Assembly: GCF_004010195.1 (NCBI RefSeq)
Contig: NC_057719.1
Span: 10,193,300 to 10,250,194, forward strand
Length of the DNA: 56,895 bases
From: Chiloscyllium plagiosum
Taxonomy: Eukaryota
Reading direction: 5' to 3'
Position 1 is the stretch's first letter. Each line of letters starts with the position of its first letter. Below are positions 15,643 through 45,219 of the stretch, piece by piece. Position numbers and translations under genes: made by a program. A model generated the notes under the pieces. It searched no databases. It was not told where the DNA came from and saw only the letters and a list, made by a program, of their open reading frames with translations.

Positions 15643-15741
15643 TAGCACTAATTCCCACAAGTTGTTTCCTCTTTTAGGAAACAGGGCAAGGCTTAAAAGA
15701 TCAAATGATGTCCTTCTGCATTGTGTTCATTTGTGACTTTG

Positions 15742-15897
15742 AGAGTGTGGCGCTGGAAAAGCACAGCAGCTCAGGCAGCATCCAAGCAGCAGGAGAATTG
15801 ACATTTCAGTCTCCTCGGATGCCGCCTGACCGGCTGTGCTTTTCCAACATGACACTCTTGACTCCGATTTCCAGCATCTGCAGTCCTCGTTTTCTCC
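15742..15897. mobile_element. Palindromic mini-PLE (family A)
   Basis: Inverted arms of the PLE terminus; 15-bp TSD TC(A/G)TTTGTGACTTTG at 15727-15741 and 15898-15912. Confidence 0.85.
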
Positions 15898-15949
15898 TCG
15901 TTTGTGACTTTGTTGGTTTCCCTCCAATCCCTTGACGCAACTATGGGGA

Positions 15950-16285
15950 GGAATATGGGGAGGTGATGGCCTTATTGCTAGGCTATTAATCAAGAGTCCC
16001 AGGTGATGCTCTGGGGACACGGTTTGAATCATGCCATGGAAGACAGTGGAATCTGTATTTAATAAATATGCAGAATTAAGAGCCTAATGATGACCATGAA
16101 TCCATTGTTAATTGGCGGGAAAATCCCATCCTGCTTACTTTCATGCTTAGCTGATCTGGCCTATATGTGATTCCAGACCCACAACAATGTGACTGTCTCT
16201 TAACTAACTCCTGGGCAATTAGGGATGGGCAATAAATGCTGGCTTAGCCAGTGATGTCCTGACCCCATAAATGAACAAAGAAAGG
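15950..16285 (+). mobile_element. tRNA-derived SINE with a GGGCAATTAGGGATGGGCAATAAATGCTGG tail
   Basis: Homologous to 55838-56345; tail shared with the second CR1-group LINE. Confidence 0.75.
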
Positions 16286-16511
16286 GGCTCTGATATCTAA
16301 TGATTAACTTATAGCTCCATTCAGAAATGGTCTGTTATGCAGTTGCTCGATTGTCCTAACCCATGCTTTCCAAATCTATAAACTAACCTGCTATGTGTGT
16401 GGCATCATAACAACAGGCTCGCCAAAAGATGATTTAAGGAAAAATATCCACTGAGTTATGTACAAGCTGAGATGTCTTTTCAGAAGAGGTGAAGCAGGGT
16501 TATTGGGTCAA

Positions 16512-16592
16512 TAGTTGTGAAGCTGGAAAAGCACAGCAGGTCAGATGGCATCCGAGGAGCAGGAATGTCAACATTTCGGTCCAAAACCTTTT
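16512..16592 (-). mobile_element. PLE family A single arm ending in HHR stem II
   Basis: GCTGGAAAAGCACAGCAGGTCAG..CATCCGAGGAGCAGGA..CATTTCGG. Confidence 0.75.
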
Positions 16593-16765
16593 GCCAAGAC
16601 TTGAGTTTGGGTGGAAACATGACTTCTTCATATTTTATTCAACCAAAACCATTCATAATTTTCAAAACTTTCTCCCTTCAACCTCCTCTGCTCTGAGGAG
16701 GATAAACCCGGCTTCTCCAGTCTCTGCATGTAACTGAAGTCTTCCACTCTTTCCCCTGGCTGAAA

Positions 16766-17065
16766 GGGTGGCATGGGGCTCAGTGGTTAGCACTGCTGCC
16801 TCACAGTGCCAGGGACTTGGGTTCAATACCAACCTCAGGCAACTGCCAGTGTGGAGTTTGCATGTTCTTCCAGTATCTGTTTGGAGTGTCCTCTGGGTAC
16901 TCCCGTTTCCTTCCACAGTCCAAAGATGTGTAAGTTAGGTGGACTGGTCATGCTAAATTGCCCGAATCAGGTAGGGATATGAGTGGGATGCTCTTCTAAG
17001 GGTCAACGTGGACTTGTTGGGTTGAATGGCCTGTTTCCACACAGTGGGGATTCTATAATTCTATA
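16766..17065 (+). mobile_element. HE1-type SINE
   Basis: HE1 head, core and tail present. Confidence 0.88.
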
Positions 17066-18610
17066 CCTGGAGGACTCAGATTTGTGGCAATTGATGGTGA
17101 GATGAGGATCCCTTTTCTGCAGGTAGCAAGTGCAGATGATTGAGAATGCAAAGTTTGAAAGAGTGCTGGAAGCAGGCTCAAAAAAAGTGTTCAGTTTGGT
17201 GAATAATCCAAGAGGAAAATTGCTTAGACAGAGAATTAGTCTGTCTAATTTATTCAATGAGTCAATACAGGCACAATAGGCTAAATAGAACATTCCCATT
17301 TCTCAAATTTCGAGGATAGTACAATTTCCAACATCATTGAGCTGAAGTTTGCCGATGCATTATCATTAGCTATTTTCCTGCATTTTAAGCTTTAAGGACT
17401 ATTTGCATTTTACCATGCTGAAAATGTGACACATTTGGGAGCATAATGACCAATAGATCTCTTTAATGAAAGAAACTTATTTAGAGGGAAACACACAGGA
17501 GATAGTAACTAGATAAACCAGAGGCTAATCAGGAAAAGAAAGGGAAATAAAGCGAGGAAAAGATACTCGAGTGATATTTTTAAAAAAGAAAAATACGAAA
17601 GACACACTTAATTTTCAAAAAAAACTCAACCATTTCCAAAAGAGGACTCCACAGTTATGTTGTTCACTTTCTGGGCTGGAGGGACAGAGTGGCATTATGT
17701 TAGCAATTGCCACATTGTCAAAGGGATGCTATTAATTATAAGGTACCATTTTCATGTGCAGAGTTTCATAACCAATTAATATTCAAGTTCTGAAGGCATT
17801 AAGGGTAATAGCAGAGCCAATGGCAGAGATGTAAATTAACAAGTGAGTCCTGCAACTCTTTGTATTTTTCTTCCTCCCTGTTCTTGCTGGTTGTTTTAGA
17901 CATTTCTGCATGGTTGGTTTTCAAGATGATTTAGTCCAGTAATAAATAACAAAGGTCATTTTAGTCCTTTTTCTACTGCCTTACATACAAACACTGCTAT
18001 CAGCTTAGGCAAAGCATACTATGTACTTGGTGTACATTTAAAATTGCCTTTACGATCAAATGTCATCCTCAATATTATACAAAAGAACATGGTTTCTTAT
18101 ACTTTGCTACAAGCTGCTGAAGGCTGTGATATTACTGAACAATGCAAGATCATGTATCTTTCATTACTTATTTCAGTGTTTGTCTTTTGGATGGTTACAA
18201 GAAATTCAGAAAAGAGAAAAAAAAAACTCCCCTTTGAACTAATTGAAAAGCAGATTACTGTGTATGGTGGGGAACTGAAATAAAGACAGAAAATGCTAGA
18301 TACACGCAGCAGGTCATGGTAGCATCTGTGGAACAAAGAGAAGTTATCACTTCAGGCTGATGGACTGCATAGCATATTGACACAGTCAATGGCATTTCAC
18401 CAGCCTGGCTGACCCTTAATCCACACTTGAATTTCTTCCACAGCTGACTGTACTAGACAGTCGTGTTAAAGCAGAAAGATACAGAACTTTGACATTGTGA
18501 TACTTTGGGTCCAATGTAAACGATTACAATCTTACAATTCTGTTTTGGGAGGGAGGGGATAAAGGCTGTTACAGCTCTCAAAACATTGATTAAACTATGG
18601 TGTTCGTAAC

Positions 18611-18811
18611 AAACAAAAATGGAAATTGCTGGAGAAACTCAGCAGGTCTGGCAGCATCTGTGGAGAGAAAACAGACTTCACGTTTCAAATCCATTGATTC
18701 TTCTTCGGAACTGAGTTACTGGACCTGAAACATTAATTTGGTTTCTCTCTTCCACAGATGCTGACACCACGGTTTCAGATTTCCAGCATCCACAGTTCTA
18801 CGTTTTATATT
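18611..18811. mobile_element. Palindromic mini-PLE (family D)
   Basis: Inverted arms ..CAGCATCTGTGGAGAGA / TCTCT.CCACAGATGCTG meeting at HHR remnants; ~17-bp TSD ACT(A/G)TGGTGTTC(G/A)T(A/G)AC at 18594-18610 and 18812-18828. Confidence 0.7.
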
Positions 18812-19227
18812 ACTGTGGTGTTCATGACTCCCTTAAATTAAAAAAAAAACTTTTACAATGATGGTTTTCTGTGCCAATCTTTTACCCTTCTCCCTGCTCA
18901 ACGTTTGAGTCAGAAAACCAAAGGTATTTCACTTCAAGAGATGTCAAGTTTCACATTTACTGTCCTCTTCAAAATATGATGCAAATTAATTGAGAAGAAT
19001 CAGGATGTTCAAAACACATGCTGTTATGGTACTGAAAGAGGCCATTCAGCCAATTGTGGTTTCACTAGAACTTAAGTTCTCCTTTGAAGCATGGTAGCTG
19101 CTCTAATGCAATATTGAATTTGCAAACAGAAAGCTCCGATAATCAGCATTGTCTCAGTGTAGCTTGCTGGCTCAGAATGATCAGACTATCTGGTATTTTC
19201 ATTATGTTTGATTAGCTGAGTGTTTTT

Positions 19228-21095
19228 TTTTTCTTATTCATTTGGGGATGTGCATGTCATTGGCTGGGCAAGCATGAATTGCCCATCCCTAGTTGCCATA
19301 TTGAGAAGATGGTGGTCAGCTCCCTTTGAATGGCTACAGTCCACATGGTTGGGTACACCCAATGCCACAATGCTCTTGTAGCCATAGTATTTATACAGCT
19401 GATCCAATTTAGCTTCTGATGAATAAACTGCAACATTTGATCGTGGGAAATTCAGTGATGACCATGCTATTGACTGTCAAGGCGCAATGGTTAGATTCTC
19501 TCTTGTTGGAGATGGTCATTCCCTTGCACTAGCATGGCACAAATGTTACTTGCTACTTGTCTTGCTGCTTTTAAACGTCTGAGTGGTCCTGAATGGTGTT
19601 GACCTTTGTACAACCATTGGTGGCCATTCCCACTTCTGACCTTATGGAGGGAAGATCATTGGTGGAGCAACTGAAGATGGTTAAGCAGAGGACACTTCCC
19701 TGAGGAACTGCAGAGATGTCTGGGGGATGTAATGATGCACTTCAAATAACAACAACCATCTTTACTGTGCCAGATATGACTCTAACAAGTGGAGAAATTT
19801 CCCAGATTCTAGCTTTGCTTGATCTTCTTGGTCGAATGCAGTCTTGATATCAAGGGCTCACCTCTGGAATTCAGCTGTTTTGTCCATGTTTTGGACCAAG
19901 GCTATAATGAGGTCAGGAGCTGAGTGGCCCTGGCAGAACCCAAACTGGGTGCCACTGAGCAGGTGCTACTTGATAGGATTGTTGAAGACACCTTCCATCA
20001 TAGAATCCCTACAGAGTGGAAACAGGCCCTTCAGCCCAACGCATCCACACTGACCCACCAAAGATTATCCCACCCAAACCCATTCCCATACCCTATTACC
20101 CTACATTTACCCCTGACTAATGCACCTAACCTACACATCCCCGAGCACTATGGGCCATTTAGCATGGTCGATTCACCTAACTCACACATCTTTAGATTGT
20201 GGGATGAAACTGGAGCACCCAGAGGAAACCCACGGAGACACGGGGAGAATGTGCAAACTCCACACAGACAGTCACCCCAGGCTGGGAATGAACCCAGGTT
20301 CCAGTCACCGTGCCGCTTCAGTTACAGGTGATTCAGAGTAGACTGATGGGTGGTAGTTGGCCAGATAGATCTGTCCTGTTTTGAGTCTACAGGATAATAC
20401 TGGACAATATTCTCATTTCCAGTAGATGCCAGTGTTGTGACTGTACTGGATCAGCTTAGTGGTACAGCAAGATCTGGAGCTCATGTCTTCAATAGCACTG
20501 CCGAAATGTTGTCAGGGACCATAGCCTTAGCCATATCCAGTGACTTCAGTCATTTCTTGATATCACATAGAGTAGATCAAATTAGGTGTAGGCTGGCCTC
20601 TTTGATGCTGGGAACCTCTGAGAGGCTGAAATGGATCATTCATTCTGAACTTCTGGCTGAAGGTTGTGAATGTTTCAGCCTTATCTTTTGCGCTGATAGG
20701 CTAGACTCTTTCTTCATTGAGAATGGGGATATTTGTGGAGCCTTCTCCTTCTCCAATGAGTTGCCCACCACCATTCATGACTGGATGTGGCAGGACTGCA
20801 GAACTTAGATCTGATCCGTTGGTTGTGGAATCACTTTGTCTTGTCTACCACTTGCTGCTTCTGCTGTTTGGCACACAGGTAGTCTTGTTTACTAGCTTCA
20901 CCAGGTCGACATTTTATGTGCAGGTAGGTCTGCTGCGGTTCCTGGTCCGGTCTCCTGAACCAGGCTTGATCCCCGGCTCGATGGTAATGGTAGAGTGGGG
21001 GACAGCATGAGATGGCAGAGTGAATTGAAATGCAATTCTCCCGCTGTAAATGGCGCACAGCAGTTAATTAATGTCCAAGTCTTCACTTACTAGAT
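19228..21095 (-). mobile_element. Second CR1-group LINE, long degraded ORF2 fragment (HE1 nested at 19998-20316; continues at about 21725-21950)
   Basis: Minus-strand remnants LD.AKAM.PDNI.AVLLKT.AP.LA.P and .SI.ANYHPISLL; 3' tail at 19228-19300. Confidence 0.75.
19998..20316 (-). mobile_element. HE1-type SINE
   Basis: CATAGAATCCCTACAG tail through to the head CACCGTGCCGC. Confidence 0.9.
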
Positions 21096-21109
21096 CTACT
21101 TTAAATCCA

Positions 21110-21319
21110 GAGTCAAAAAGTGTGGTGCTGGAAAAGCGCAGCCAGTCAGGCAGCATTCGAGGAGCAGGAGAGTCGACGTTTCGAGTATAAGCTCTTCATC
21201 AGGATGAAGAGCTTATGCTCAAAATGTTGATTCTCCTGCTCCTCGGATGCTGCCTGATTGCTTTTCCAGTGCCACACTTTTTGACTCTGATCTCCAGCAT
21301 CTGCAGTTCCCACTTTCTC
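21110..21319. mobile_element. Palindromic mini-PLE (family A) centred on the HHR
   Basis: Arms of about 95 bp meet at CATCAGGATG; 14-bp TSD CTACTTTAA(A/G)TCCA at 21096-21109 and 21320-21333. Confidence 0.9.
21171..21205 (-). ncRNA. Hammerhead ribozyme (family A), intact core
   Basis: Minus strand: tc CTGATGA a GAG.cttata.CTC GAAA CG TC ga. Confidence 0.65.
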
Positions 21320-21399
21320 CTACTTTAAGTCCAATCTATCTAGCATAGTAATCGAGCCACACAGAATTATGGTGGGTATCTTCAAAGTGAAAACGAGAC

Positions 21400-22105: not shown

Positions 22106-22187
22106 GTGAAAGGAATTGAACTTTAACTCTCAGCATGCTGTTGAACAAGATAAAAGGAGCTTTGTCATAATGACATGAGGTCACATG

Positions 22188-22778
22188 TGTAGTGACTATA
22201 ATGAGGTCAGTCAGATGGACCTCAGAGAATATGAGTTTCCTGATTAGGGCTGTTAATCTGGTTCAATCAGGGAGCTGTGGCCTACAGGCAAAAATGGGAG
22301 TCTTATGTTAGAGCTCGGGTGTCTCTGGAAAAGGAGCACGCGGTGTCCACCAACACCCTGGAGTTGTTCAGGGAGAGGTGGGCGCCGAAGGGAGTGGAGT
22401 GCATTATTTCCCCCTCCAACTCTATTTTGATTTAGTCCCTCCCCTCCCCTTCACTGTTTGATCACATAGCACTGCCCTTTGATGCGAAGGGCAGCGCTTG
22501 TCACTGGCCACTCAGGTGTTTCTTTGCTTCCTGGTGGTAGAAATTTGAATAAAGATTCGTGCACCTTGTGTCTCTCACTGTGTCTCACACCTGCACACAC
22601 ACAACATGGGTGCTGGGGAAAAAAACAGAAAAAGAAAAAAAGAAAAAAAGTGAAAAAAGGGGGAGTGCTGACACTCTAGTATCTGACTTTGTATGAGGCA
22701 GCACTAAAGCCAATGACTGTCTATGTTTAAATAAAAGTTGATTTTGTGACAGAATACTGACAACTGTGGAGTTATTTA
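22188..22778 (+). mobile_element. Solo LTR-like repeat (second copy) interrupted by Tx1
   Basis: TGTAGTGAC start, CAATCAGGGAG, AATAAA, GAGTTATTT end; collinear with 6855-8820. Confidence 0.65.
22303..22658 (+). mobile_element. Tx1-like LINE 3' fragment
   Basis: YVRARVSLEKEHAVSTNTLELFRERWAPKGVECIISPSNSILI*, then the 3' UTR and an A-rich tail. Confidence 0.88.
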
Positions 22779-23510: not shown

Positions 23511-23559
23511 ACTTGTTTTGATGGCCTCTCTACCATTCTCTATATACAGTTATATTAGA

Positions 23560-24038: not shown

Positions 24039-25045
24039 TCATAGAGTCACAGAGATATACAGCACAGAAACAGACCCTTCGGTCCAACTCGTCCACGCCA
24101 ACCAGATAGCCTAACTTAATCTAGTCCCATTTGACAGCACTTGGCCCCTGTCCCTCTAAACCCATCCTATTAGTATACCCATCCAGATGCCTTTTAAATG
24201 CTGTAATTGTACTAGCCTCCACCACTTCCTCTCATTTCATACACGCATCACCCTCTACATGAAAAAGTCGCCCCTTAGGTCCCTTTTATATCTTTCCCCT
24301 CTCACCCTGAACCTATGCTCTCCAGTTCTGGACTGCCCCACCCCAGGGAAAAGACCTTATCTATTTATCCTATCCGTGCCCCTCATGATATTATAAACTG
24401 CTATAATGTCACCTCTCAGCTTCCAACACTTCAGGGAAAACAGCCCCAACCTCTCCCTATAGCTCAAAAGGGTTCAGAAAAGACTTACAGATATGTTGCC
24501 AGGGTTGGAGGATTTGAGCTATAGGGAGAGATTTAATAAGGTGAGGCTGTTTTCTCTGGAGCATCAGATGCTGAGAGGTGACCTTATAGGGCTTAAAAAA
24601 ATCATGAGGGTTGAAAAGTGTGGTGCTGGAAAAGCGCAGCAGGCCAGGCAGCATCCGAGGAGCAGGAGAATCGACGTTTCGGGCCTTTCTTCAGGAATCC
24701 AAAATCATGAGTGGCATGGATAGGATAAATAGACAAGGACTTTTCCCTAGGGTGAGGGGAGTCCAGAATCAGAGGGCATAGGTTTAGGGTGAGAGGGAAA
24801 AGACTTAAAAGGGACCTAATGGCAAGTTTTTCCTACAAACGGTGGCACGTAAAGGAAGTGGTGGAGGCTAGTACAATTACAACATTTAAAAGGTATCTGG
24901 CTGGGTATATGAATAGGAAGGGTTTGGAGAAATATGGGCCAAGTGCTGGCAAATGAGACTAGATTAATTTAGGATATCTGGTCAGCACGGATGAGTTGGA
25001 TCGAACGGTCTGTTTCAGTAATGTGCATCTCTATGGTTGTATGTA
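24039..25045. mobile_element. Two HER1 3' ends joined head-to-head (minus 24039-24467, plus 24468-25045)
   Basis: Both carry outward-facing tails and cover the same region of the LINE. Confidence 0.88.
24609..24700 (-). mobile_element. PLE family A single arm ending just 5' of the HHR core
   Basis: Minus strand ATTCCTGAAGA..GCCCGAAACGTCGATTC; 11-bp TSD AAAATCATGAG at 24598-24608 and 24701-24711. Confidence 0.85.
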
Positions 25046-25148
25046 GCCAAGGGTCACTCCAAACATTAGTTTTGATTTCTCTGCAGAGATGCTGCAGCAA
25101 TTTCTGTTTTTTTGTGTCAAAGTTGAACAAGGTTGTCTCAATTCAAAG

Positions 25149-25336
25149 CTGAAAAATGTGTTGCTGAAAAAACGCAGCAGGTCAGGCAGCATCAAAGGAG
25201 CAGGAGAATCGACGTTTCGGGCATAAGCTCTTCTTCATTCTCCTGCTCCTTTGATGCTGCCTGACCTGCTGTGCTTTTCCAGCAACACATTTTTCAGCTC
25301 TGATCTCCAGCATCTGCAGTCCTCACTTTCTCCCTT
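25149..25336. mobile_element. Palindromic mini-PLE (family A)
   Basis: Near-perfect inverted arms; exact 13-bp TSD TCTCAATTCAAAG at 25136-25148 and 25337-25349. Confidence 0.92.
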
Positions 25337-26019
25337 TCTCAATTCAAAGGTGTGATTGCACTACTCTAAAAGTAAGATAGATCCAAAAGCTGTGAAGGTT
25401 TTATTTGCTGAGTTCATGTCTTTTAAAAATACTTCTTCATTCCAAAAATGATTAGTGCAAAAAGGTCAAAAGCACCTTAGGTGGTTATTAAGGCGTTATA
25501 CACACATGGCAATGAGAATGCAATTTTTGCATTTAGAAAGAAAAAGAGTTGCTGTTGGCCACTGAAGGTACTTAACACTTGGGAACATGTTGCAAAAATA
25601 ATGGTCTTTATGAGCAATGTCTAATATTTAAAGTTTGACCATACTTCACATTTTCCTCGCAGGCACATCATCATTTACCAGTTCTCGTTAAATCAGTATT
25701 AATGTTGCTTCCATACAGTTTGCTAAATGACACAGCACTCCAATAATTAACGTTCGTCTCCAGACCATAAGTTAAATAGTTGCCGAAAACAAATCGCTTC
25801 AGAGTAAAGAAATGTATTAATATTTATCTCTCTACTTTATTTAAATGGGTGATTGATAATTACAACCTAACAAGTTAAAGAGCATTTACAACAACACTGA
25901 TACAACAGTGTGATGGACTATTCAGATCAGTGCTGCCTGCAGACTATGCGATACTAAACTTTGCAAGCCAAAATTTAAAACTCTGAAATGTGTCATCAAA
26001 TCCATCTCCATGTCCCGAA

Positions 26020-27835: not shown

Positions 27836-27844
27836 GTAATTATG

Positions 27845-28801: not shown

Positions 28802-29254
28802 AATGAGAAATTGCTGAAGGAAGATTAGAGAATGACGGAGAATGCTGTGAGCTAAGGCAACTTGACGTTGAAAGTGGGAGCACCCTACAACTATCTGATT
28901 AGAGAAGTACACAAGGGGCAGAGAAATGAACAGAAAGGACCTGCTCTAAGGCAGATCACTACTTTTTTGCTGCTACGATTTAAGACAATGAAGAGTGATA
29001 TTAGGCAGTGTGTAAAGCTGGAGCTCCATCCAATTCCATGGGCTTGCTGTTTGGCCTGTTAGGCTGACTTTGCCTGTGGAGTTTACAGCATGGATTCGGT
29101 GCCAAAGTCAGGTTAACCCCAGTTATTCTCAAGAAATACTTTGCCTTGCCTCACTAAAGCACGAGCAAGCTGTGAGCATCACAGAATTTGAAATCCAGCA
29201 CCTGATGTGGCCCTTTCAAAGTTAAACCAAAGCAGCATGTTCCATCTTCTTGGT

Positions 29255-29562
29255 TGACAAGCAGGAGGCTGGAAGAACACTGCAAGCTTCAGGAGGTGGA
29301 GAAGCTGACCTTTCAGGTGTTACCCTTCTTCAGGACTAGGGGTGGGTGTCAGGGAAGCTGCAGATAAAGGGGAGGGGAGGGGATGATGAGGTAAGGACAA
29401 CTGAACACAGGTAGAGGGTACAACCTGGTTGGTAAATGGGAGGAATGAATCTGGTTGGTGGTTGGAAGGAAGGGTCGGTCAGAGGGATGGAAGTGAGGAG
29501 GAGGGGCTGGGAAGGGAGTTGGGAGATGGGAAGGGAGATTAGTTGAAATTGGAGAACTGAGC
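29255..29562 (-). mobile_element. PLE-like 3' terminus (family E) with a degenerate HHR
   Basis: Minus strand CCTGAAGAAGGGTAACACCTGAAA followed by ..TCTTCCAGCCTCCTGCTTG; same family at 40318-40410. Confidence 0.6.
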
Positions 29563-32535: not shown

Positions 32536-32989
32536 AATTTTGATAGAATGATGTATAAACAGACTTAAATGTTGCTTCAGGAGCTCCTGTGTCTAAGTGC
32601 AGTATTTTCTTTCACTGAAAGGAATGTGCACTGTGGGAGGGCACAGATTTAAACAGAATAGTTCTTGCATAATGCTACACAGTCACAGCATGTGCTTTGT
32701 GAGCCACTGATGATGTCCCTATTTTGCTAAATCTTTACAGGTGCTGAATCAGCAACAAATTATTGCTTGGTCAGAAATGAGTTTGGCGGCCACTGGCCAA
32801 AATGGTTGGTGCTTTTCTTTGTCTTCAGGATCACTAGGAACATCAGCCATATCAAAAACAAAAAACATTGTACTGTGCTGCAGAACCAGAAGGCATCGAT
32901 CTGACCAACTGATGGGATCCTAAATCCCAATTTGCTGTACTCAAATTCCCAAAAGTGAGAGCTGATCACGGAGGGAAAATCTGATGAAG

Positions 32990-33235
32990 ACAGAAATAAA
33001 AAAGCCAAGCCTTGCTCGAACCTTGAGCAGCATCTGTGGAGACAGAAACAGACTGAACATTTTGAGTCCAATGACCCTGCATCAGACCGGTTTTGAGTTC
33101 TGAAGAAGAATCTTGCAGGACTTGAAACATTAACTCTGTTGCTCTCTCCACGGATGCTGCCAGACATGTTGAGTTTCTCCAGCATCCTCTGTGCTTGTTT
33201 TAGACTTCCAGCATCTGCAGCATTTTGACTTTGTT
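32990..33235. mobile_element. Palindromic mini-PLE (family D) with two opposed HHRs
   Basis: Plus HHR GAGTT CTGAAGA a gaatc..gactt GAAA CA TT AACTC (33095-33136; stem I GAGTT/AACTC); minus remnant CTGATGC.GGGTC.ATTG.GACTC at 33055-33086. Confidence 0.7.
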
Positions 33236-33385
33236 AAGAATGTGAGGATTTGCTCTAACATGTTTGGTTTCCTGAGGAAGTCAGTGCAGAATAAAGACAG
33301 GAAAATCATTACTCAAGCGATCCCAATGTCAAGGCATTTTTAAAAAAAATCATTCATAGGATTTGGGCGTTGCCAGCAAGGCCAC

Positions 33386-35530
33386 ATTTATTACCCATTG
33401 CCAATTGTCCATTACCCACATTTATTACCCATTGCTATTTGTCCATTACCTATTGCTAATTTCCCATTACCCACGTTTATTACCCACTGATAATTGCCAT
33501 TACACACATTTATTACCCATTGCTAATTGCCCATTACCCACATTTATTACCCATTCCTAATTGCCCAGTACCATATTTATTACCCATTGCTGATTGCCCA
33601 TTACCCACTTTTATTACCCATCGTTAATTTCCTATTACCCATTTTTATTACCCATTACTAATTGCCCATTACCCACAATTATTACCCATTGCTAAGTGTC
33701 CATTAACCAAGTTTATTGCTCACTGCTAATTGCCCATTACCCACATTTATTATCCATTGCTAATTGTCCATTACCTTTTGTTTCCCATTGCTAATTGCTC
33801 ATTACCCATGTTTATTACCAATTGCTAATTGCCTCTTACCTACATTACCCATTGCTAATTTCCCTATATCCATGTTTATTACCCATTGCTAATTGCCCAT
33901 TACCCACATTTATTATCCATTGCTAATTGCCCATTACCATTTTTGTTTCCCATTGCTAATTGTCCATTAACCATGTTTATTACCCATTGCTAATTGCTCA
34001 TTACCCATGTTTATTATCCATTGCTAATTGCCCATTACCATGTTTATTACCCATTGCTAATTGCTCATTACCCATGTTTATTACCAATTGCGAATTGCCC
34101 ATTACCCACGTTATTACCCATTGCTAATTTCCCTATACCCATGTCTATTACCCATTGCTAATTGCCCATTACCCACATTTATTATCCATTGCTAATTGCC
34201 AATATCCATGTTTATTACCCACTGGTAATTGCCAATATCCACATTATTACCCATTGCTAATTGCCCATTATTCAGATTTATTACCCATTGAAAATTGCCT
34301 ATTACCCACATTTATTATCCATTACTAATTGCCCATTATTTATTTATTACCCATTGCTAATTTCCAATTACCCGTTTATTACCAATTGCTAATTGCCCAT
34401 TACCCACGTTTATTACCCATTGCTAATTTCTCATTACCCACGTTTATTACCCATTGCTAATTGCCCATTACCCACGTTTATTACCCATTGCTAATTGTGC
34501 ATTACCCATGTTTATTACCCACTGCTTATTGCCAATATCCACATTTATTACCAATTACTAATTGCCCATTACCCACATTTATTATCCATTGCTAATTGTC
34601 AATATTCACGTTTATTACCCACTGGTAATTGCCAATATCCACGTTTATCACCCATTGCTAATTGCCCATTATTCAGATTTATTACTAATTACTAATTTCC
34701 CATTACCCACGTCTATTACCCATTGTTAATTGTTCATTATTCACATTTATTACCCATTGCTAATTTCCCATTACCCACATTTATTAACCATTGCTAATTG
34801 TCCATTACCCACATTCACTCCCCATTGCTCATTGCCCACTACCCATGGCTTATTACCCATTGATAATTGCCCATTACCCATATTTATTACCCATTGCTAA
34901 TTCCCCATTATTAACATTACCCATTGTTAATTGCCCATTACCCACATTTATTACCCATTGCTAATTGCCCATTACCCATGTTNNNNNNNNNNNNNNNNNN
35001 NNNNNNNNNNNNNNNNNNNNNNNNNNNNNNNNTTATTACCCATTGCTAATTTCCCATTACCCACGTTTATTACCCATTGCTAATTTCCCATTACCCACGT
35101 TTATTACCCATTGCTAATTGCTCATTACCCACGTTTATTATCCATTGCTAATTGCCCATTACCCATGTTTATTACCCATTGCTAATTTCCCATTACCCAC
35201 ATTTATTACCCATTGCTAATTGCTCATTACCCACATTTATTATCCATTGCTAATTGCCCATTACCCATGTTGACTACCCATTGCTAACTGCACATTACCC
35301 ACGTTTATTACCCATTGCTAATTTCCCATTACCCATGTTTATTACCCATTGCTAATTGCCTCTTACCCACGTTTATTACCCATTGCTACTAATTGCCTCT
35401 TACCCACGTTTATTACCCATTGCTAATTGCCTCTTACCCATGTTTATTACCTATTGCTAATTGCCTCTTATCCACATTTATTACCCATTGCTAACTGTCT
35501 GTTATCCATGTTTATTATCCATTGCTAATT
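33386..35530. repeat. 34-bp minisatellite (TTACCCACGTTTATTACCCATTGCTAATTGCCCA)n, about 60 units, spanning the gap at 34983-35032
   Basis: Read directly from the sequence. Confidence 0.97.
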
Positions 35531-36205
35531 TGCCTTGTGCTGAGTCAACTGCAAAGAAGCAAGTTTGGCAGGTGGTAGTGTCCCTATGCTTGGGCCAGCA
35601 AAGGCCCACCTGTTCTACAAACATTTTTCATAGCATCTGCAAACAGGTTGATGAGGAAATATAGTAAACTTTGCTTTAATTGGCACCTTATTTCCAGCAC
35701 TCTTGATAATCTGTCAAAAATTATATACACCTCAAATACTGCAGAGTTTACTGTATCATTCTGTCCAATTACAATAGTTTTTAAAAAAAATTAAATTATC
35801 TCAATGTAAATATACTTGTTCATTCAAATGGTAATATTAAATACTAACAGTTGATTGAATTTCGAGTTAATTTCTCCTCAAATCCAGTGATCTACCGCGA
35901 TATATAAGTGGTCAGTTGAGGGTGCAAGTGAGAAGGCTGTCTGTCAATAAGTATTACTTAAGGCAAAATTGCATTATTATTGAAGTGACTGATGCTGTAA
36001 ATATAGTGTCACAGCGATGTGTATACCTGCATTATGTTTCCATTACTTAGTGTGTTTTAGTGCATTTTTACATTGATTATGTGGGCCTCTTGATTCTCCA
36101 GATTATTTGATCAATCAGGACACTCCTGATTCCATAGATGCCAGATAATAAGAAGTTTACTGTATCTACAAGTTCCACATCGAATCAAGCAGTTGTATAT
36201 CTGGA

Positions 36206-37828
36206 GTCAAGAGTGTGGTGCTGGAAAAGCACAGCCGGTCAGGCAGCATCTGAGGAGCAGGAGAATTGATGTTCCGGGCATAAACCCTTCACCGGGAACG
36301 ACGCTTGTGGGTCGGGGCTGAGAGATAGATGGGAGGGGGTGGGTTGGGGGAGGTAGCTGGGTAAGTGATAGGTAGATAAAGGTGAGGGAGAAGGTGATAG
36401 GTCAGAGGGGACAATGATGGACAGTGCTGAAGGGCAGTGCTGAATTGGACGTTTGGGACTGCGATACTGTGGGGGAAGGGAAATGAGGAAGCTGTGGAAA
36501 TCCATATTTATCCAGTGTGGTTGCAGAGTCCCAAGATGGAATATGAGGCATTCCTCCTCCAGGCGTCAGGTGGTAATGGTTTGGCGGTGAAGGAGGCCCA
36601 AGACCTGCATGTCCTTGACGAAGTGGGAGGGGGAGTTGAAGTGTTCAGCCACGGGGTAGTGGGGTTGGTCGGTACAGGTGTCCCAGAGATGTTCTCTGAA
36701 ATGATCCACAAGAAGGTGTCCTGTCTCCCTAATGTAGAGGAGACCATATTGGGTGCAACAGATGCAGTAGATGACATTGGGAGAGGTACAGGTGAATTTC
36801 TGACAGATGTGGAAGGATCCCTTGATGCCTTGGACAGGGATGAGGGGAGTGGTGTGGGCGCAGGTTTTACACTTCCTGCGGTAGAAGGGAAAGGTGCCAG
36901 GAGTGGCGTGTGGGCTGGTGGGGGGTGTGAACCTGACAAGGGAGTTGTGGAGGGAATGGTCTTTTTGAAATGCTGATGGGAGTGAGGAGAGAAATATATC
37001 TCTGATAATAGGGTCCATTTGGAGGTGGCGGAAATGGCAAAAGATGATGCGTTGTAAGCGGAAGTTAATGGGGTGGAAGGTGAGGACCGGGGGGTTCTGT
37101 CCTTGTTGCGTTGGAAGGGGTAGGGTTCAAGGGTGGTGGTGCGTGAAGTGGAGGAGATACGCTGGAGGGCATCGTCAACCACGTGGGAAGGGAAGTTGCG
37201 ATCGTGGAAGAAGGAGGCCATCTGGGACTTTCTGAGATGGAATGGTCATCCTGGGAACAGATGCGGCAGAGACGGAGCAATTGGCAATAAGGGATGACAT
37301 TTTTACAGGGGTTAGGATGGGTGTGGTGTAGTCTAGGTAGCTGTGGGAGTCAGTAGGTTTGTAGTATATGTCTGTGGTTAGTTGGTCTCCAGAGACGGTG
37401 ATAGAGAGGTCCAGGAAGGGGAGGGAGGTTGCCGAGATGGTGCAGGTGAATTTGAGGTCAGGGTGGACGGTGTTGGTAAAGTTGATGAACTGTTCAACCT
37501 CCTCATGGGAGCACAAGGCAGCGTCGATACAGTCACCGATGTAGTGGAGGAACAGGTGGGGAGTGGTGCCAGTGTAACTGTGGAAGATGGACAGTTCCAC
37601 ATATCCGACAAACAGGCAGGCATAGCTGGGTTCCATGCGGGACTCCAACCCCACCCCCTCCTCCCATTTATCTCTCAGCCCAGACCCACAAGCCTCATTC
37701 CTGATGAAGGGCTTATGCCCGAAACATCGATTCTCCTGCTCCTCGGGTGCTGCCTGACCTGCTGTGCTTTTCCAGCACCACACTCTCAATTCTGATCTCC
37801 AGCATCTGCAGTCCTCACTTTCTCCTCA
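36206..37828 (-). mobile_element. Neptune-like PLE (family A), 5'-truncated RT + GIY-YIG, with an inverted terminal copy (37640-37828)
   Basis: SRMEPSYACLFVG..HYIGDCI..LPFLDLSI..DIYYKPTDSHSYLDY and RRKCKTC..FTCTSPNVIYCICCTQYGLLYIRETG..FREH; 13-bp TSD at 36193-36205 and 37829-37841. Confidence 0.92.
37697..37732 (+). ncRNA. Hammerhead ribozyme (family A), stem III palindrome mutated
   Basis: attc CTGATGA a GGGC-ttat-GCCC GAAA CA TC gatt. Confidence 0.7.
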
Positions 37829-38044
37829 TCGTATGTCTGGACGCTGCATTTACTAATCATGTCACCTCTCGGTGGAAGAATGAGCAGAAATGCAGTGCAA
37901 TGTTGGCTGAACATTAATCCTATTCAGTCATATTTCAAATTAACAACCTCCCGCAGAGCAGGACGTATCAGCCCCAGGTCTAAATGCATTCAGTATGTGC
38001 AGGGACACAAGGTTGACTGCAGGAACAGAAGGACTGTCCAATCA

Positions 38045-40030
38045 GAGCCAGTTGAGAAGACAGGGCATGTACACACTGGAGTATAGAAGGACAAGAGGTG
38101 ACCTTATTGAAACATGGAAGATTCTTAGGTGGTTTGACAGGGTAAATGTGGAAAGTGTGTTTCCTCTTGTGGAAGAATCTAGGACCAGACAGTATGATTG
38201 CAGAATAAGGGGTCACACATTTAAGACTGAGATGAGGAGGATTTTGTTCTCTTGGAGGGTGGTGAATCTGCAGAATTCTTTCCCATTGAGGGCTGCAGAG
38301 GCTGGGTCATTCAGCATACTCAAGCCTGAGATAAACAGGTTAATATACAAAGTTTGTGAGAAGATTTGCAGCTCGGGTGCTCGTTGTTGTGGTTCTGTTC
38401 GCCGAGCTGGGAATTTGTGTTGCTGGTTTGAATCTACTGCTTCCGGTTGTCAGTTCCAGCTGTCCGCTGCAGTGGTCGGTATACTGGGTCCAGGTTGATA
38501 TGCTTATTGATTGAATCTGTCGATGAGTGCCATGCCTCTAGGAATTCCCTGGCTGTCCTCTGTTTGGCTTGTCCTATAATAGTAGTGTTGTCGAATTCAT
38601 GTTACTTGTCATCTGCGTGTGTGGCTACTAAGGATAGCTGGTCGTGTCGTTTCGTGGCTAGTTGGTGTTCATGGACACGGATCGTTAGCTGTCTTCCTGT
38701 TTGTCCTATGCAGTGTTTTGTGCAGTCCTTGCATGGGATTTTGTACACTACATTGGTTTTGCTCATGCTGGGTATCGGGTCCTTCGTTCTGGTGAGTTGT
38801 TGTCTGAGAGTGGCTGTTGGTTTGTGTGCTGTTATGAGTCCTAGTGGTCACAGTAGTCTGGCTGTCAGTTCAGAAATGTTTTTGATGTATGGTAGTGTGG
38901 CNNNNNNNNNNNNNNNNNNNNNNNNNNNNNNNNNNNNNNNNNNNNNNNNNNNNNNNNNNNNNNNNNNNNNNNNNNNNNNNNNNNNNNNNNNNNNNNNNNN
39001 NNNNNNNNNNNNNNNNNNNNNNNNNNNNNNNNNNNNNNNNNNNNNNNNNNNNNNNNNNNNNNNNNNNNNNNNNNNNNNNNNNNNNNNNNNNNNNNNNNNN
39101 NNNNNNNNNNNNNNNNNNNNNNNNNNNNNNNNNNNNNNNNNNNNNNNNNNNNNNNNNNNNNNNNNNNNNNNNNNNNNNNNNNNNNNNNNNNNNNNNNNNN
39201 NNNNNNNNNNNNNNNNNNNNNNNNNNNNNNNNNNNNNNNNNNNNNNNNNNNNNNNNNNNNNNNNNNNNNNNNNNNNNNNNNNNNNNNNNNNNNNNNNNNN
39301 NNNNNNNNNNNNNNNNNNNNNNNNNNNNNNNNNNNNNNNNNNNNNNNNNNNNNNNNNNNNNNNNNNNNNNNNNNNNNNNNNNNNNNNNNNNNNNNNNNNN
39401 NNNNNNNNNNNNNNNNNNNNNNNNNNNNNNNNNNNNNNNNNNNNNNNNNNNNNNNNNNNNNNNNNNNNNNNNNNNNNNNNNNNNNNNNNNNNNNNNNNNN
39501 NNNNNNNNNNNNNNNNNNNNNNNNNNNNNNNNNNNNNNNNNNNNNNACAAAACGCTACATAGGACAAACAGGAAGACAGCTAACGATCCGCATACATGAA
39601 CACCAACTAGCCACAAAATGATATGACCAGCTATCCTTAGTAGCCACACACGCAGATGACAAGTAACATGAATTCGACTGGAACAACACTACTATTATAG
39701 GACAAGCCAAACAGAGAACAGCCAGGGAATTCCTAGAGGCATGGCACTCATCCACAGATTCAATCAATAAGCACATCGACCTGGACTCAATATACCGACC
39801 ATTGCAACGGACAGCTGGAACTGACAACCGGAAGCGGCAGAGACAAACCACGATAAAATCACAGAAGCGCTTCACAGGAGGCTCCCAAGCACTGAGGATG
39901 TCACCTAGACAGGGGACAAAACGTCTGCAACACAAATTCCCAGCTCGGCAAACAGAGCCACAACAGGTTTTTATACAGTAGGGGAATCAAGAGTTATGGG
40001 GGAAAGGCAGCAAACTGGAGTTGAGGATTG
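38045..40030 (+). mobile_element. CR1 3' fragment interrupted by an inverted PLE pair
   Basis: LRRQGMYTLEYRRTRGDLIETWKILR..TRQY..RIRG; resumes after 39977. Confidence 0.8.
38350..39962. mobile_element. Inverted pair of PLE family B 3' ends (minus 38350-38901, gap, plus 39547-39965)
   Basis: GIY-YIG region on both arms; 16-bp TSD AACAGGTT(AA/TT)TATACA at 38334-38349 and 39962-39977; the plus-arm HHR has GAAA mutated to AAAA. Confidence 0.88.
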
Positions 40031-40039
40031 TGTAAAGTA

Positions 40040-40280
40040 TCACAATGGTTAGCACTGTTGCCTCGGGTGACAATTTGAGTTGGGTTTCCACTGGGTGCTC
40101 TGGATTCCTCCCACAGTCCAAAAGCATGCAGGACAGGTAGATTGGCCACACTGCGATGACCAGGTTAGATGGATTAAGCCCTAGTAAACGTGGGATTATG
40201 GGGATTGGGCAGGGGCCTGGGTGTTCAGAGGTCAATGCAGACTGCCTGGGCATTGTATGGATTGTGGGGATTCTATGAAT
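40040..40280 (+). mobile_element. Degenerate HE1-type SINE
   Basis: GGTTAGCACTG..TTCCTCCCACAGTCCAAA..GGGATTCTATG. Confidence 0.75.
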
Positions 40281-40933
40281 CTGTTCTCTATGATGAGCAG
40301 ATCAGCTTTGATCTCATCCTGAAGAAGGGATACACCTGAACCAACAATGTCTCCCCCTCCTGATGCTGCCTGGTTTGCTGTGTCCTTCCAGCCTCCTGCT
40401 TGCCTACCTTGAACTCCTTGAATGGCAGTGCAGAATCAATGGGCTAGATAGTCTGCTGCTATGCCTCCTGAGAAGGATATCACAAGACTGGCTACCCCAA
40501 GTCTATTCACATTCCTGGGTCTTGAAGATCAGAAAAGTTCCTACAGAGTGAAATTTCTCTTCATTCCAGATCCTTGTCCTCTGACGTAATTAATAAAAAG
40601 TATTCAGGATGTCACAAAACATCAGAAATTTTTCTCATCTTGACAGCAGCTTTGGCTGATGTTAAGAGTGAAGTAAGCAACAGGTTCTAACCAAGAGGAA
40701 TTGTGTGACTGAGTTGCGCAGATGCATCACGGCCACCATTTTAAATGACGTTGCTGTATTAGAGCCAGAATAAAATATTTAAAGTGAACAAAAAGCAGCA
40801 ATCACTCACTCTGGATGTTATGAGCAGGTGAGAATGGATGCATCTGCACCCCTCTGTTCAACCTCATTAGTTAGTCACAACAAAGGTTTAAGTTATTTCT
40901 GCTCAAGGCTAGACCCACGTCCAATTCAAAATA

Positions 40934-41465
40934 TTGCTGCATTTTAGGAAAGCAAATCTTAACAGGACTTATACACTTAATGGTAAGGTCCTAGGGAGTG
41001 TTGCTGAACAAAGAGACCTTGGAGTGCAGGTTCATAGCTCCTTGAAAGTGGAGTCGCAGTTAGATAGGATAGTGAAGAAGGCGTTTGGTATGCTTTCATT
41101 TATTGGTCAGAGTATTGAGTACAGGACTTGGGAGGTCATGTTGCGGCTGTACAGGACAGTCCAGAACTAGAGGGCATAGGTTTAGGATGAGGGGGAAAAG
41201 ATATAAGAGAGACCTAAGGGGCAATTTTTTCATACAGAGGGTGGTAAGGGTATAGAATGAGCTGCCAGAGGAAGTGGTAGAGGCTGGTACAATTGCAATA
41301 TTTAAGAGGCATTTGGATGGGAATATGAATAGGAAGGGTTTGGAGGAATAAGGTCCGGGTGCTGGCAGGTGGGACTAGATTGGGTTGGGATATCTGGTTG
41401 GCATGGACGAGTTGGACTGAAGGGTCTGTTTCCATGCTGTACATCTCTATGACTGTGACTCTATG
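40934..41465 (+). mobile_element. CR1/HER1 fragment with an internal deletion at about 41158
   Basis: LHFRKAN..EQRDLGVQVHSSLKV..LYRT jumps directly to SRTRGHRF and the tail. Confidence 0.92.
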
Positions 41466-41487
41466 TTAACTGTGTTTTGCTGGGAGC

Positions 41488-41905
41488 AATAACAACACTC
41501 AAGAACTTTAACACCATCCAGGACAAAGTAGCCCACTGGATTGGCACTGCATCCACTCCCTCCACCACTGACACTCAGTAGCAGCAGTGTGTACTACCTG
41601 CAAGATGCACTGCAGAAGTTCACCAAAGATCCTCAGACAGCACCTTCCAAACCAACAACCACTTTCATATTGAAGGATAAGTGCAGCAGATACATAGTAA
41701 CCCCGCCACCTGCAAGATCCCCTCCAAACCACTCACCATCTTGACTTGGAAATATTTCGCCGTTCCTTCACAATCATTGGGTCAAAATCCTGGAATCCCC
41801 TCACATTGTGGGTCTACTACAGCACATGGACTGCAATGTTTCAATGTGGCACACCACTCTCTTTTCAAGGGACAGCAATGCCCATGTCCCAGCAATGAAT
41901 AAAAA
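41488..41905 (+). mobile_element. Second CR1-group LINE 3' end
   Basis: TTLKN..TIQDK.A..I..IHSLHH.H.VAAVCT remnant; tail ending AATGAATAAAAA. Confidence 0.75.
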
Positions 41906-42464
41906 TGTATAGAGAGCCAATCAATAAGGTTTTCTGAAGTAAAGAGGCAGGTAAATTTATGAACTGGTACTATGGAAAGCATTAAGGATGTGTGCTCTTA
42001 CTTTCCTACATGCAAAACGAGTTTCAGCTTATTCTAGCACTATGAAAATTTGAGAAGTCTCACTCCCCATGTACAGACATTTGATGGTCTCATTGTGAGT
42101 CATACATTCCAGTTGATGAATTTCAACATCCAAATTGTGATCTCCTAAGGGTGTGATCTACCCATGCTGTTTTGAAATTGTTTCGTAGATTCCTGGGAGC
42201 TTGTCTATTTTCAGGTCAGGTGACTTTGGAAGCCATTTTAACGCATTCCAGCCCATTTTAAATTATGCCTTTCTCAACCTAAAGTCAAATGCTTTCAAGA
42301 TCATTGATGACGTTTTAAAGATTAATAATCTGTATTTTGTATTATCATGTCAATGTAAGATGATTATTTCAATCGGGGAAGCATTAAGTTAATGGGATGA
42401 AAGCCTGATGGATTTTCAATTACGAACACATTAAACATGCACAAAACTTTAGGCGAACACATCA

Positions 42465-42600
42465 GAATGGTGTTGAGGGATTGCTGCAATATTGGAGGTG
42501 CCGCTTTTCAAAAAAGACTAAACCCGAGTTCTTGCCTGCCCTCGAACCACAACATGAGGAAATCTTCCTGGAATTCAGGCCAATTTTTATCCATCAATAT
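42465..42600 (+). mobile_element. Deu-domain SINE remnant
   Basis: TGAGGGA.TGCTGCA.T.TTGGAGGTGCCG.TTTTC..TAAACC.GAG..TGCCCTC..GGCCAAT.TTTATCC.TCAA. Confidence 0.6.
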
Positions 42601-42617
42601 CTAATTAAAATACAAAA

Positions 42618-43160
42618 TGAAAACCGAAAGAACTGCTGATGCTGGAAATCAGAAACCATAACAGAAATTGTTGGAAAAGCTCGGTAAGTCTGGCAGCATC
42701 GGTGGACAGAAATCAGAGTTAACATTTCGGGTCCAGTGACCCCCTCCTCAGAACCTCAGTGGAGCAGCACAGTGGCTCAGCGGTTAGAACTGCTGCCTCA
42801 CAGCATCAGGGACCCGGGTTTGATTCCAGCCTTGGGTGACTGTGTGCAGTTTGCAGTTCTCCCCATGTCTGCATAGGTTTTCCCCCCCCGGATGCTCTGG
42901 TTTCCTCCCACAATCCAAAGGTGTACAGGTTAGGGTGGATTGGCTATGCTAGATTGCCCCTAGTGTCCAGGGATGTGCAGGCTAATTGGATTAGCCATGG
43001 GGAAAGCAAGTTTACAAAGATAGGATATCTGGGTGGACTGGTCTTCAGAGGGTCAGTGTGGACTTGATGGACCAAATGGCCTGCTTCCACACTGTAGGGA
43101 TTCTATGATTAGATGCTGCCAGACCTGCTGAGCTTTTCCAGCAATTTCTGTTTTTGTTTC
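42618..43160. mobile_element. Palindromic PLE (family D) split by an HE1 SINE (42760-43110, plus strand)
   Basis: Left arm ends at a minus-strand HHR GTT CTGAGGA g GGGTC-actg-GACCC GAAA TG TT AAC (42716-42756); right arm AGATGCTGCCAGACCTGCTGAG. Confidence 0.8.
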
Positions 43161-44800
43161 TAAGCGAGAGCACTGTGCACAAATTCATACCTTACATGGT
43201 GCCTACATTTTACAAGGAGCTCAGCGAGCTGTGAGGTACTCTTGGGTGTGCAAAGATAATGAAAAGCGCTACGTAAATGCAAGCTGTTACTTTTCTCTCT
43301 TCTACCCAAACAGTGATGGTATTCACTCATACTAACGCAAAATACTATGGATTCGGGAAAACTGGAAGAGAAAACAAGATTGCTGCAAATGCTCAGCAGG
43401 TCAGGCAGCTTCTGTGGAGAGAATCAGAACTGGAACTGATGTCCATTGGCCTGATACATTGTTCTCTCCACAGATATCACCAAAGCAGTGAAGAATTTTC
43501 AGCATGTCTTGTTTTTATTCAATTAGATGATTTTATTAAATAAAATGTACATTTTTTACAAGGTTCAAATATGCAGATAATAATCTTGCAAGATGAAAAG
43601 ATGTTGCTGTCAATCCACTGTCCTGTCTCTGTTCTTTGTGATGTGGCAGCTATGTTAACTGTTGCTGTAATCCAAGAATCTATACAAAATAAGGCTGCAA
43701 TAAATAAATGACCAGGCAAGCCTTTGTGACAAAGATCAAATCTGATCTCTATGATATTTGGTGCATGCCTCAACAAACATGACTGTTATTCCATTATCAA
43801 ATATTTAGACAAAGTATCACAGATGTCAATGGACTGTGTGTTGAATGTTTATCAAAAATACTGTCTGCAAGAATGGGTTTATCTCTTCATGCTGAGAATC
43901 AGGAGTTCTGGGAAAATAACACAGATGTGGAGATAGACCAATCATTTCCTTGAATTACATGAAGTAATCCTTTAATCTTGAACTTTTTGTTTTAGACCTG
44001 ATAAGGAGCACTGATTTACTGCAGTAAAGTCAAACAATACACACAGGTCTGATTACACAGGAATATTGCGCTCAGCAGTGGAATGTGGCTGGAAGTATTG
44101 CAAAATGCCGTTATTAACAAATGCTTCAGACATCATTTCAACTGCATATTAATCCCTATTCCCCCATACTACCAAGTTAAATAATGGAGAAATGGCTAGA
44201 ATAAGAAAAGTGCTTTCAATTCACCAGCAACTATGTGCAATCGACCATGACTTTGACTCAATCTAATCAATCTCCCAAGGAAGTCTAAAAATGCCTTCAT
44301 ATCTTCCACATGTCTTAGATCAAGGAAAATTAAGAAAACATTGTTATCCATCTTGAGTCATTTTCCACACAATTCATTTTGTTACTGGAATGGCTTCCTT
44401 ACTGACATCACTGTGGTCCCCAAAACACGTGTCAAGGACATCCCATATATCGTAGGAATATCTCAGTTCTCAATAGACTGACAACACTCAATGCTGAACC
44501 AACCAGAACATATTGTATCTTATCTTTACCCAAATGATTTCAAGTCCCTTTCATAAAATTGATTGATAAGTCAAACGTATAAATAAGTTATCTGACCGTA
44601 GGAAATAGGACATAGGCCTTTTAGCTACTCTGCCATTCAACATGATCCTGGCTGATCTTCTACCTCTACAGCACTGTACCACATGGTACACATATCTCGT
44701 GACATCTTTAACATCAATGGCAGGGACTAGGTTGGCTCAGTTGGTACAACCTCTCCCTCATAAGTCAGTGTACTGTGGCTTCAAGGTCTTCTCCACATCA

Positions 44801-45003
44801 TGTAGAGGTGGTAGTGTTGGACTGGGGTGGACAAAGTTAAAAAATCACACAACACCACTTTATAATCCAACAGGTTTATTTGGGTGCACTAGCTTTCGGA
44901 GTGCTGCTCCTTTAGTTACCTGATGAAGGTGCAGCTCTCCAAAAGCTAGTACTTCCAAATAAACCTGTTGGACTATAACTTGGTGTTGTGTGATTTTTTA
45001 ACT
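44801..45003. mobile_element. Palindromic mini-PLE (family C) centred on the HHR
   Basis: Arms of about 85 bp; the two arms together give CTGATGA a GGAGC-agc-(G)CTCC GAAA GC TA GTG (AGCT palindrome); exact 12-bp TSD TTCTCCACATCA at 44789-44800 and 45004-45015. Confidence 0.88.
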
Positions 45004-45219
45004 TTCTCCACATCAGTTAACTTGAAAATACAGAACAGCAATAAAGGATTGCAGTCGCCTCTGAACCAAGAGCTCTTCTGTTCCATGGGTCTAGTCAGCA
45101 TTGAAGATAGCAAAGGAACACAGAGTTTGGTGCCCTGACCACAGCTTAACTCTATTGATCTGGTTGTCACTTGCGGGATCTTGTGTTGGCCTCCATTGCA
45201 AGTTGCACACGGCCATGTT

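Follow-up and report, generated by a model that had tools for sequence, protein, structure and literature searches.

Head-to-head pairs of Penelope-like element ends in the window

The window analysed here is the whole stretch C10:10193300-10250194 (56,895 nucleotides, contig NC_057719.1) of the 3.56-Gb genome of Chiloscyllium plagiosum. It carries short hairpins and longer inverted pairs, in which two ends of Penelope-like elements (PLEs) stand head to head, typically one with a tail and the other without. The hairpins are separate, dead insertions of PLE ends, and they probably record a double priming of reverse transcription on one RNA. Eight such elements, reported by an earlier reading of the letters alone (the sequence-only reading), were all recovered when the window was compared with itself and its sequence read, and are listed below with their target-site duplications (TSDs) and with one solo arm, numbered from the first letter of the window.

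15727..15912, family A hairpin 15742: tail-less arm 15742-15807 (-), tailed arm 15811-15897 (+), hammerhead core missing from both arms; TSD 15727-15741/15898-15912, 15 bp with 1 mismatch.
18594..18823, family D hairpin 18611: tail-less arm to 18710 (-), tailed and internally deleted arm from 18721 (+); TSD 18594-18605/18812-18823, 12 bp with 1 mismatch.
21096..21333, family A hairpin 21110: tail-less arm 21110-21204 (-) with the core motif kept, tailed arm 21203-21319 (+), arms overlapping by 2 nt at the centre; TSD 21096-21109/21320-21333, 14 bp with 1 mismatch.
24598..24711, solo family A tail-less arm (-): 11-bp TSD; 5' end at the initiator-like A, with a non-native G before it.
25136..25352, family A hairpin 25149: tail-less arm to 25237 (-), tailed arm 25237-25336 (+); TSD 25136-25151/25337-25352, 16 bp with 1 mismatch, 13 bp exact.
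32988..33238, family D hairpin 32990: tail-less arm at left (-), tailed arm 33098-33235 (+); best flanking repeat 10 bp with 2 mismatches, which is chance level.
36195..37841, long family A (Neptune-type) pair 36206: tail-less 1.4-kb arm 36206-37640 (-), tailed arm 37645-37830 (+); TSD 36195-36205/37831-37841, 11 bp with 1 mismatch.
38334..39977, long family B (Penelope/Poseidon-type) pair 38350: tailed arm 38350-38901 (-) with the hammerhead region deleted at 38423/38424, tail-less arm 39547-39961 (+); TSD 38334-38349/39962-39977, 16 bp with 2 mismatches.
44789..45015, family C hairpin 44801: tailed arm 44801-44912 (-), tail-less arm 44918-45003 (+) continuing into an imperfect match to the TSD; TSD 44789-44800/45004-45015, 12 bp without mismatch.

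Most of the eight had been credited with a TSD of 12-17 bp; seven have one, of 11-16 bp, and at 32990 none rises above chance. The centre of the family B pair cannot be seen because the pair spans a 645-N gap (38902-39546). A ninth head-to-head pair, of family D, lies at 42632..43160, its centre split by a repeat resembling a short interspersed element (SINE) at 42760-43109. A fifth related family, E, has copies at 29252-29336 and 40317-40417.

Sample and identity of the families

Counts were made in a pool of the window and 14 hand-picked blocks chosen without regard to content, together 1.41 Mb without N; a further 0.49 Mb of search-selected loci (L-numbered) was used for end mapping only. 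Positions in family A are counted from the T after an initiator-like A, which is position 0, and the predicted hammerhead cleavage site lies at 31/32.

Long copies of family A carry the PLE-type reverse transcriptase (RT) motifs PADKG and YIDD and match RVT_1 weakly, below the cut-off. A GIY-YIG-like motif was recognised by pattern in family A (L193, L196, L202 and window 36206-37640) and in family B (window 51000-52000); the arm at 36206-37640 combines it with a broken RT end and a cysteine linker. A Pfam search of six window fragments gave no match, and neither did a search of the RT against solved structures. Families C, D and E are provisionally placed among the PLEs from their repeat and motif, and the clade labels of B-D, drawn from motif likeness, are our assumption. 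In three of the four translated long A copies a cysteine-rich linker, CxRxxCxxC, precedes the endonuclease motif. A linker of this kind between RT and endonuclease is the criterion of the Neptune clade in the available excerpt of PMC8557442, and by it family A is a Neptune-type endonuclease-containing (EN+) PLE.

The terminal repeat was found upstream of the open reading frame (ORF) in 11 of 30 ORF-start loci of family A, and in ten aligned 5'-repeat loci the tail continues into the ORF region, with the ATG 36 nt further on. Four loci (L243, L245, L265 and L226) have a common ORF-to-repeat junction sequence, and L243 and L265 have common flanks as well, so that some loci are duplicated segments or assembly copies.

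Core boxes of a minimal type I hammerhead, with a foldable helix II, are present in the majority sequences of A, B, C and E and are degenerate in D. Rfam returned no hammerhead match, only sub-threshold microRNA matches, and helix II covariation gave a p value of 0.19. For each of the five majority sequences (5/5) the prediction includes a long-range stem that pairs the tail around the tail-less site, but one natural copy did not fold better than shuffled sequences (z -0.75).

Abundance and the pairing of tailed with tail-less arms

Tight pairs were counted in the pool as adjacent arms of the same family, head-to-head against tail-to-tail. Head-to-head pairs numbered 76 in A (290 arms), 32 in C (107 arms), 24 in D (136 arms), 4 in E and 0 in B (18 arms), against 3, 2 and 1 tail-to-tail pairs in A, C and D, respectively. 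Among control repeats, 0/189 copies of a SINE-like repeat stood in head-to-head pairs, as did 0/218 and 1/60 copies of two ends resembling long interspersed elements (LINEs). Head-to-head pairing is therefore not a product of chance, since tail-to-tail pairs are few and the controls are near zero. Outside the window, 128 hairpins were found in 1.357 Mb, which corresponds to 94 per Mb and 1.9% of bases; a rough extrapolation from these non-random blocks gives about 300,000 hairpins genome-wide. At 55965-56345 in the window, a different repeat with a LINE-like end forms a head-to-head pair, the single case among 60 copies sampled.

The two arms of a pair are rarely of the same kind. One tailed and one tail-less arm were joined in 70/76 hairpins of A (4 had both arms tailed and 2 neither), in 27/32 of C and in 19/22 of D (24 D pairs were counted in the first pass and 22 in the rerun). 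Compared with independent assortment, in which half would be expected, the p values were 3e-15, 6e-5 and 4e-4, respectively, so the asymmetry of the tails is not random. Family E showed the same asymmetry in three of its four hairpins, and among 49 long pairs tested all 13 with a confirmed TSD (13/13) obeyed the rule. The sequence-only reading had described a one-sided tail in A, B and C; this holds for the A and C hairpins and for the B pair of the window, and D, which it had left out, is asymmetric likewise. Its view that four families share one geometry stands for the hairpins of A, C and D; B occurs as long pairs, with no mini-elements in the sample.

Outer ends, target-site duplications and solo arms

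With a TSD score of at least 9, tested against swapped-flank controls, duplications were detected in 33/76 A hairpins versus 0/228 controls, and in 13/32 C hairpins versus 2/96. The D hairpins were not above chance at this score (4/24 versus 3/72); a wider search gave 5/29 versus 0/87, and 2 of these 5 were artefacts at locus ends. Family D is older, and its TSDs are mostly indistinct.

The ends of family A were mapped on 57 well-bounded pairs out of 125, selected loci included. Their TSDs were 10-20 bp long with a mode of 15 bp, and 13-17 bp in 49/57. Tail-less arms ended at 89-96 in 50/57 and tailed arms at 125-131 in 51/57, which confirms two fixed outer ends clustering about 36 nt apart. 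The median tail was 36 nt in A and 37 nt in C. No target-site consensus was recognised in the 57 A pairs except for purines at the primer ends.

The tail-less arm had been said to blend into the TSD. Measured against the arm of the element itself, microhomology at the tail-less end averaged 1.85 nt (null 0.69), and 13/54 ends had none; the mean blending is about 2 nt. Against the family majority sequence it was 1.28 nt at the tail-less end and 1.18 nt at the tailed end (tailed null 0.67). The idea that microhomology is confined to the tail-less end was rejected, as the two ends are alike by this measure.

Solo arms gave further information on the two ends. In family A, 26/137 unpaired arms had their own TSD (null 0/274); of these, 14 lacked the tail and 12 had it, and two of the tailed ones were tandem units. 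Because TSD-flanked solos of both kinds exist, each end type inserts alone.

Variable centres of the hairpins

The junction between the arms differs from one element to the next. Junction descriptors were distinct in 75/76 A hairpins and 32/32 C hairpins of the pool, and the centres of the 76 A hairpins comprised 29 overlaps, 5 blunt joins and 42 inserts. Among the 28 best genome-wide matches to hairpin 21110 the centres also vary, and one of them recurs, exactly or nearly, in about 6; its flanks differ between occurrences, and it coincides with the 5'-end hot spot described below, with a 2-nt overlap. Arm divergence was 8.4% within elements versus 13.4% between them, and the partner was the closer one in 52/58. 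Paired arms agreed at three subfamily markers in 53/56, 55/57 and 17/17 cases, respectively. Their CpG sites decay independently, and this disagreement argues against a later homogenisation of the arms. The variable centres, the near-fixed outer ends and the 13-17 bp TSDs, which are neither TA nor 8 bp, indicate independent retro-insertions rather than miniature inverted-repeat transposable elements (MITEs), as the sequence-only reading had anticipated.

The hammerhead core motif was kept in both arms of 3/76 A hairpins, in one arm of 27 and in neither arm of 46. Arms ending at 30-34, around the predicted cleavage site, were 6/290 in A and 2/107 in C, and ribozyme cleavage was therefore rejected as the cause of the centre. 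Hairpin 21110 is predicted to form a near-perfect duplex (-152.1 kcal/mol, z -19.6), and a fold of this kind would bury the motif. These results do not support a role for the sense and antisense ribozyme halves that the sequence-only reading had pointed out.

A 5'-end hot spot with an extra G

In 63 tight A hairpins, 60/126 arm 5' ends fell within a 12-nt stretch (-2.5 to +9.5) at the 5' edge of the motif, and 5 lay upstream of -10. Arms ending at 0 were preceded by G in 14/26 cases, versus 6/44 for other ends (selected loci included). Exact genome-wide counts of the non-native base before position 0 were 6513 for G, 3548 for A and 1733 for T. Before +1, G was counted 1751 times and C/T 9545 times; before -1, G made up 1446 among 28,290 A/G/T. 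Arms that read through have C or T as the native base at that spot and G in 0/80, and a subfamily with a native G at -1 was rejected on this ground. Position 0 presumably matches the initiator consensus. In family C a TATA-like box lies at -36; the extra G of this family was seen in 3/3 arms at -4, one of them explained by the partner arm, and is anecdotal. In other retroelements, an extra G at the end of complementary DNA (cDNA) is a product of cap copying.

Distinct ungapped copies that reach the 5' repeat started at -14 to +5 in 4/8 cases, one starting further upstream and three downstream. In five ORF-selected, TSD-flanked pairs (L218:1258-2026, L226:1234-2269, L254:565-953, L257:888-1845 and L270:1085-1806) both arms end at -2 to 0 and enclose an ORF piece of 150-850 bp, which suggests a template jump after cDNA run-off. 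Where both arms of an A pair reach the edge, they tend to behave alike: both stop in 25 pairs, both cross in 5, and 1 is discordant (p 4e-5).

One block contained a tandem arrangement. At C18:4168052-4168430 (block C18, 68052-68430), at least 2.5 near-identical 139-bp A units stand head to tail up to an assembly gap, each running from about -3 to just past the tail. It looks like a young retrozyme-type array or the product of repeated run-off and re-priming.

Double priming on one RNA and the alternatives

We consider double priming on one RNA repeat, from two start sites about 36 nt apart and one per cut strand, to be the probable origin of the pairs. One ribonucleoprotein would nick both target strands 13-17 nt apart, and its two RT sites would start 36 nt apart on a single repeat copy, one giving the tailed and the other the tail-less arm. 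Given TSDs formed from 3' overhangs, each arm would be the antisense extension of one cut strand. The RNA would survive the first pass (the PLE RT is not known to have an RNase H domain), and the downstream enzyme would follow and stall more often. In family A the tail-less arm reached further 5' in 39 pairs and the tailed arm in 18 (p 0.0075). If position 0 is the capped transcription start, priming on the capped 5' repeat would give two run-off cDNAs, each of at most about 130 nt, and end-joining with short microhomology or small inserts would link them into a hairpin of 110-310 bp. The hammerhead would then lie at the hairpin centre because the transcript begins there. Priming on the 3' repeat or on a read-through repeat would produce the long inverted pairs. 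The sequence-only reading had each strand of a staggered GIY-YIG cut prime at one of two fixed positions, and the pairing rule, the TSDs, the ends and the variable centres agree with it, the stagger itself staying putative. On a broader scale, we tentatively suggest, as nearly an even call, that PLEs integrate by same-template double priming; the hairpins, as paired strong-stop cDNAs made on the capped 5' repeat, would then be a fossil map of the start site, the cap and the dimer geometry, and the tail and inverted repeats of all EN+ PLEs would be explained.

Several points weigh against this reading. Family B gave no tight pair among its 18 arms and no short hairpins. In family C there was no bias in 5' reach (13 versus 11), and the coupling of stopping and crossing was not significant (p 0.3). 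The coupling in A is itself open to detection bias, since a long arm is matched to a short partner only if a TSD is present within 6-7 kb, and it has exceptions at C38:2592 and at L243, where a full-length copy is accompanied by an inverted arm that ends at +1. The extra G is accounted for by a template end or by terminal transferase, not necessarily by a cap, and the putative transcription start and cap are read from genomic DNA only. The subfamily concordance fits one RNA and two RNAs of one source locus alike.

The last point leads to double target-primed reverse transcription on two RNAs, or two repeat copies, in an asymmetric dimer, with the 5' pile-up as a stall or a processed RNA end. 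We regard this as rather unlikely. It explains the pairing rule, the TSDs and the solos equally well, and it accommodates L243 and C38:2592, where one arm crosses and the other stops at the edge. In the available parts of PMC2377424 and PMC4209133, the D. virilis start is placed 46 nt and a 75-nt intron upstream, and this intron ends at the motif's 5' edge; the edge can therefore be a processing boundary. Against it speak the arms that stop or cross together in 30/31 pairs and the extra G, which is confined to a single base and absent from read-through arms; a structural stall would be expected on the 3' side of the fold.

Fold-back, in which a single priming is followed by self-priming on cDNA or an antisense template and the second arm joins the target by microhomology, has been proposed for head-to-head Penelope structures (in the accessible text of PMC3846280). 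The microhomology above chance at the tail-less end (1.85 versus 0.69 nt) and the 29/76 overlapping centres fit it. Nevertheless it seems improbable, because the tail-less arm is commonly the longer one (39 versus 18 pairs), reaching 1.4 kb versus 0.19 kb for the tailed arm in the pair at 36206-37830. Since no copy can be longer than what it was copied from, fold-back of the tailed cDNA cannot give a longer tail-less arm, and a cDNA that lacks the tail cannot supply one. The 14 tail-less solos with TSDs, and pairs with ORF pieces between two arms that each end at the motif edge, also speak against it, and fold-back on sense templates is disfavoured.

Spread of MITE-like units from a few founders, through a DNA transposase or as self-copying ribozyme elements, can hardly be maintained: one centre does recur in about 6 of the 28 best matches to hairpin 21110, with different flanks and at the hot spot, whereas 75/76 junctions in the unbiased set are distinct, the ends are asymmetric, the TSDs of 10-20 bp have no fixed sequence, arms are nearest within their own element (sampled arms group by element, not by arm type), and the hammerhead cores are mostly lost. 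The hairpins resemble MITEs in small size, lack of coding capacity and high copy number, and differ in having no common founder centre and no transposase-type TSD.

Relation to known systems

Of the features described here, inverted copies, tails on one side and the pair of start sites have been published before. As described in the accessible portions of PMC8557442 and PMC3846280, units of EN+ PLEs (Penelope/Poseidon, Neptune and Naiad) include an inverted 5'-truncated copy and a 30-40-bp tail at one end; head-to-head arms, the one-sided tail, the TSD around the unit and a hammerhead in the repeat are common to these units and ours. Relative to the units in those portions, the hairpins are mostly minimal, with arms below about 130 nt, and reach the very high density of 94 per Mb, and the tail, optional or often one-sided there, is near-obligate on one arm here. 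The 5'-end hot spot with its extra G does not appear in the descriptions in the same portions. The hairpins thus belong to a PLE insertion pattern that is already known, as a minimal and abundant form of it, and do not make up a new element class.

The anole Poseidon element PAc cuts and extends both strands in vitro, with two internal starts bounding the tail and a predicted dimer; it inserts without a need for ribozyme cleavage, and its tail extends into the ORF region (Frangieh et al. 2024, PMC11167929). It is like the hairpins in the two starts bounding the tail, in the use of both strands and in the tail running into the ORF. The assay showed no start-site difference between strands and did not address inverted products, whereas the genomic pairs imply one site per strand per event. 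In twin priming of L1, cDNA synthesis on a single RNA is primed from the two target strands, which leads to an inversion. There the internal site used by the second primer varies and the arms are free of overlap; in the hairpins the two starts are fixed and each arm copies the same sequence. In Schistosoma, minimal dual hammerheads lie on opposite strands 100-700 bp apart (Cervera and de la Pena 2014, PMC4209133, in its accessible part); these are probably the same kind of product, given in that part without ends, TSDs or mechanism. Non-LTR retrozymes derive from PLE repeats and stand head-to-tail with intact hammerheads, according to the accessible text of bioRxiv 10.64898/2026.07.22.740005; they are likewise small, non-coding and of high copy number, whereas the hairpins are head-to-head and not tandem arrays. 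Our literature search, which left subscription papers, including older Drosophila insertion studies, outside its scope, found no account of strict pairing, the extra G, the coupling or twin priming in PLEs.

The origin of inverted and tailed PLE insertions is named as open in the excerpt of PMC8557442, and it was not settled by the 2024 in vitro work. The hairpins add in vivo constraints on the PLE mechanism, under which each strand would use a single start site, both sites would lie on the same repeat copy, and the transcript would have its capped start at the hammerhead edge. For annotation it matters that they look like MITEs and give weak scores as microRNA precursors.

Other repeats in the window

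Element 32990 is adjoined by a tandem array of about 2.1 kb (33382-35535) with a period near 34 bp. Family B is represented at 51000-54000 by young copies (95-97% alike), which are arranged partly in tandem, with broken pieces of ORFs, around an N gap. Another young family of repeats, distinct from these and with ORF-like pieces in a complex tandem arrangement, occupies 6949-8461, 22303-22625 and 55398-55810.

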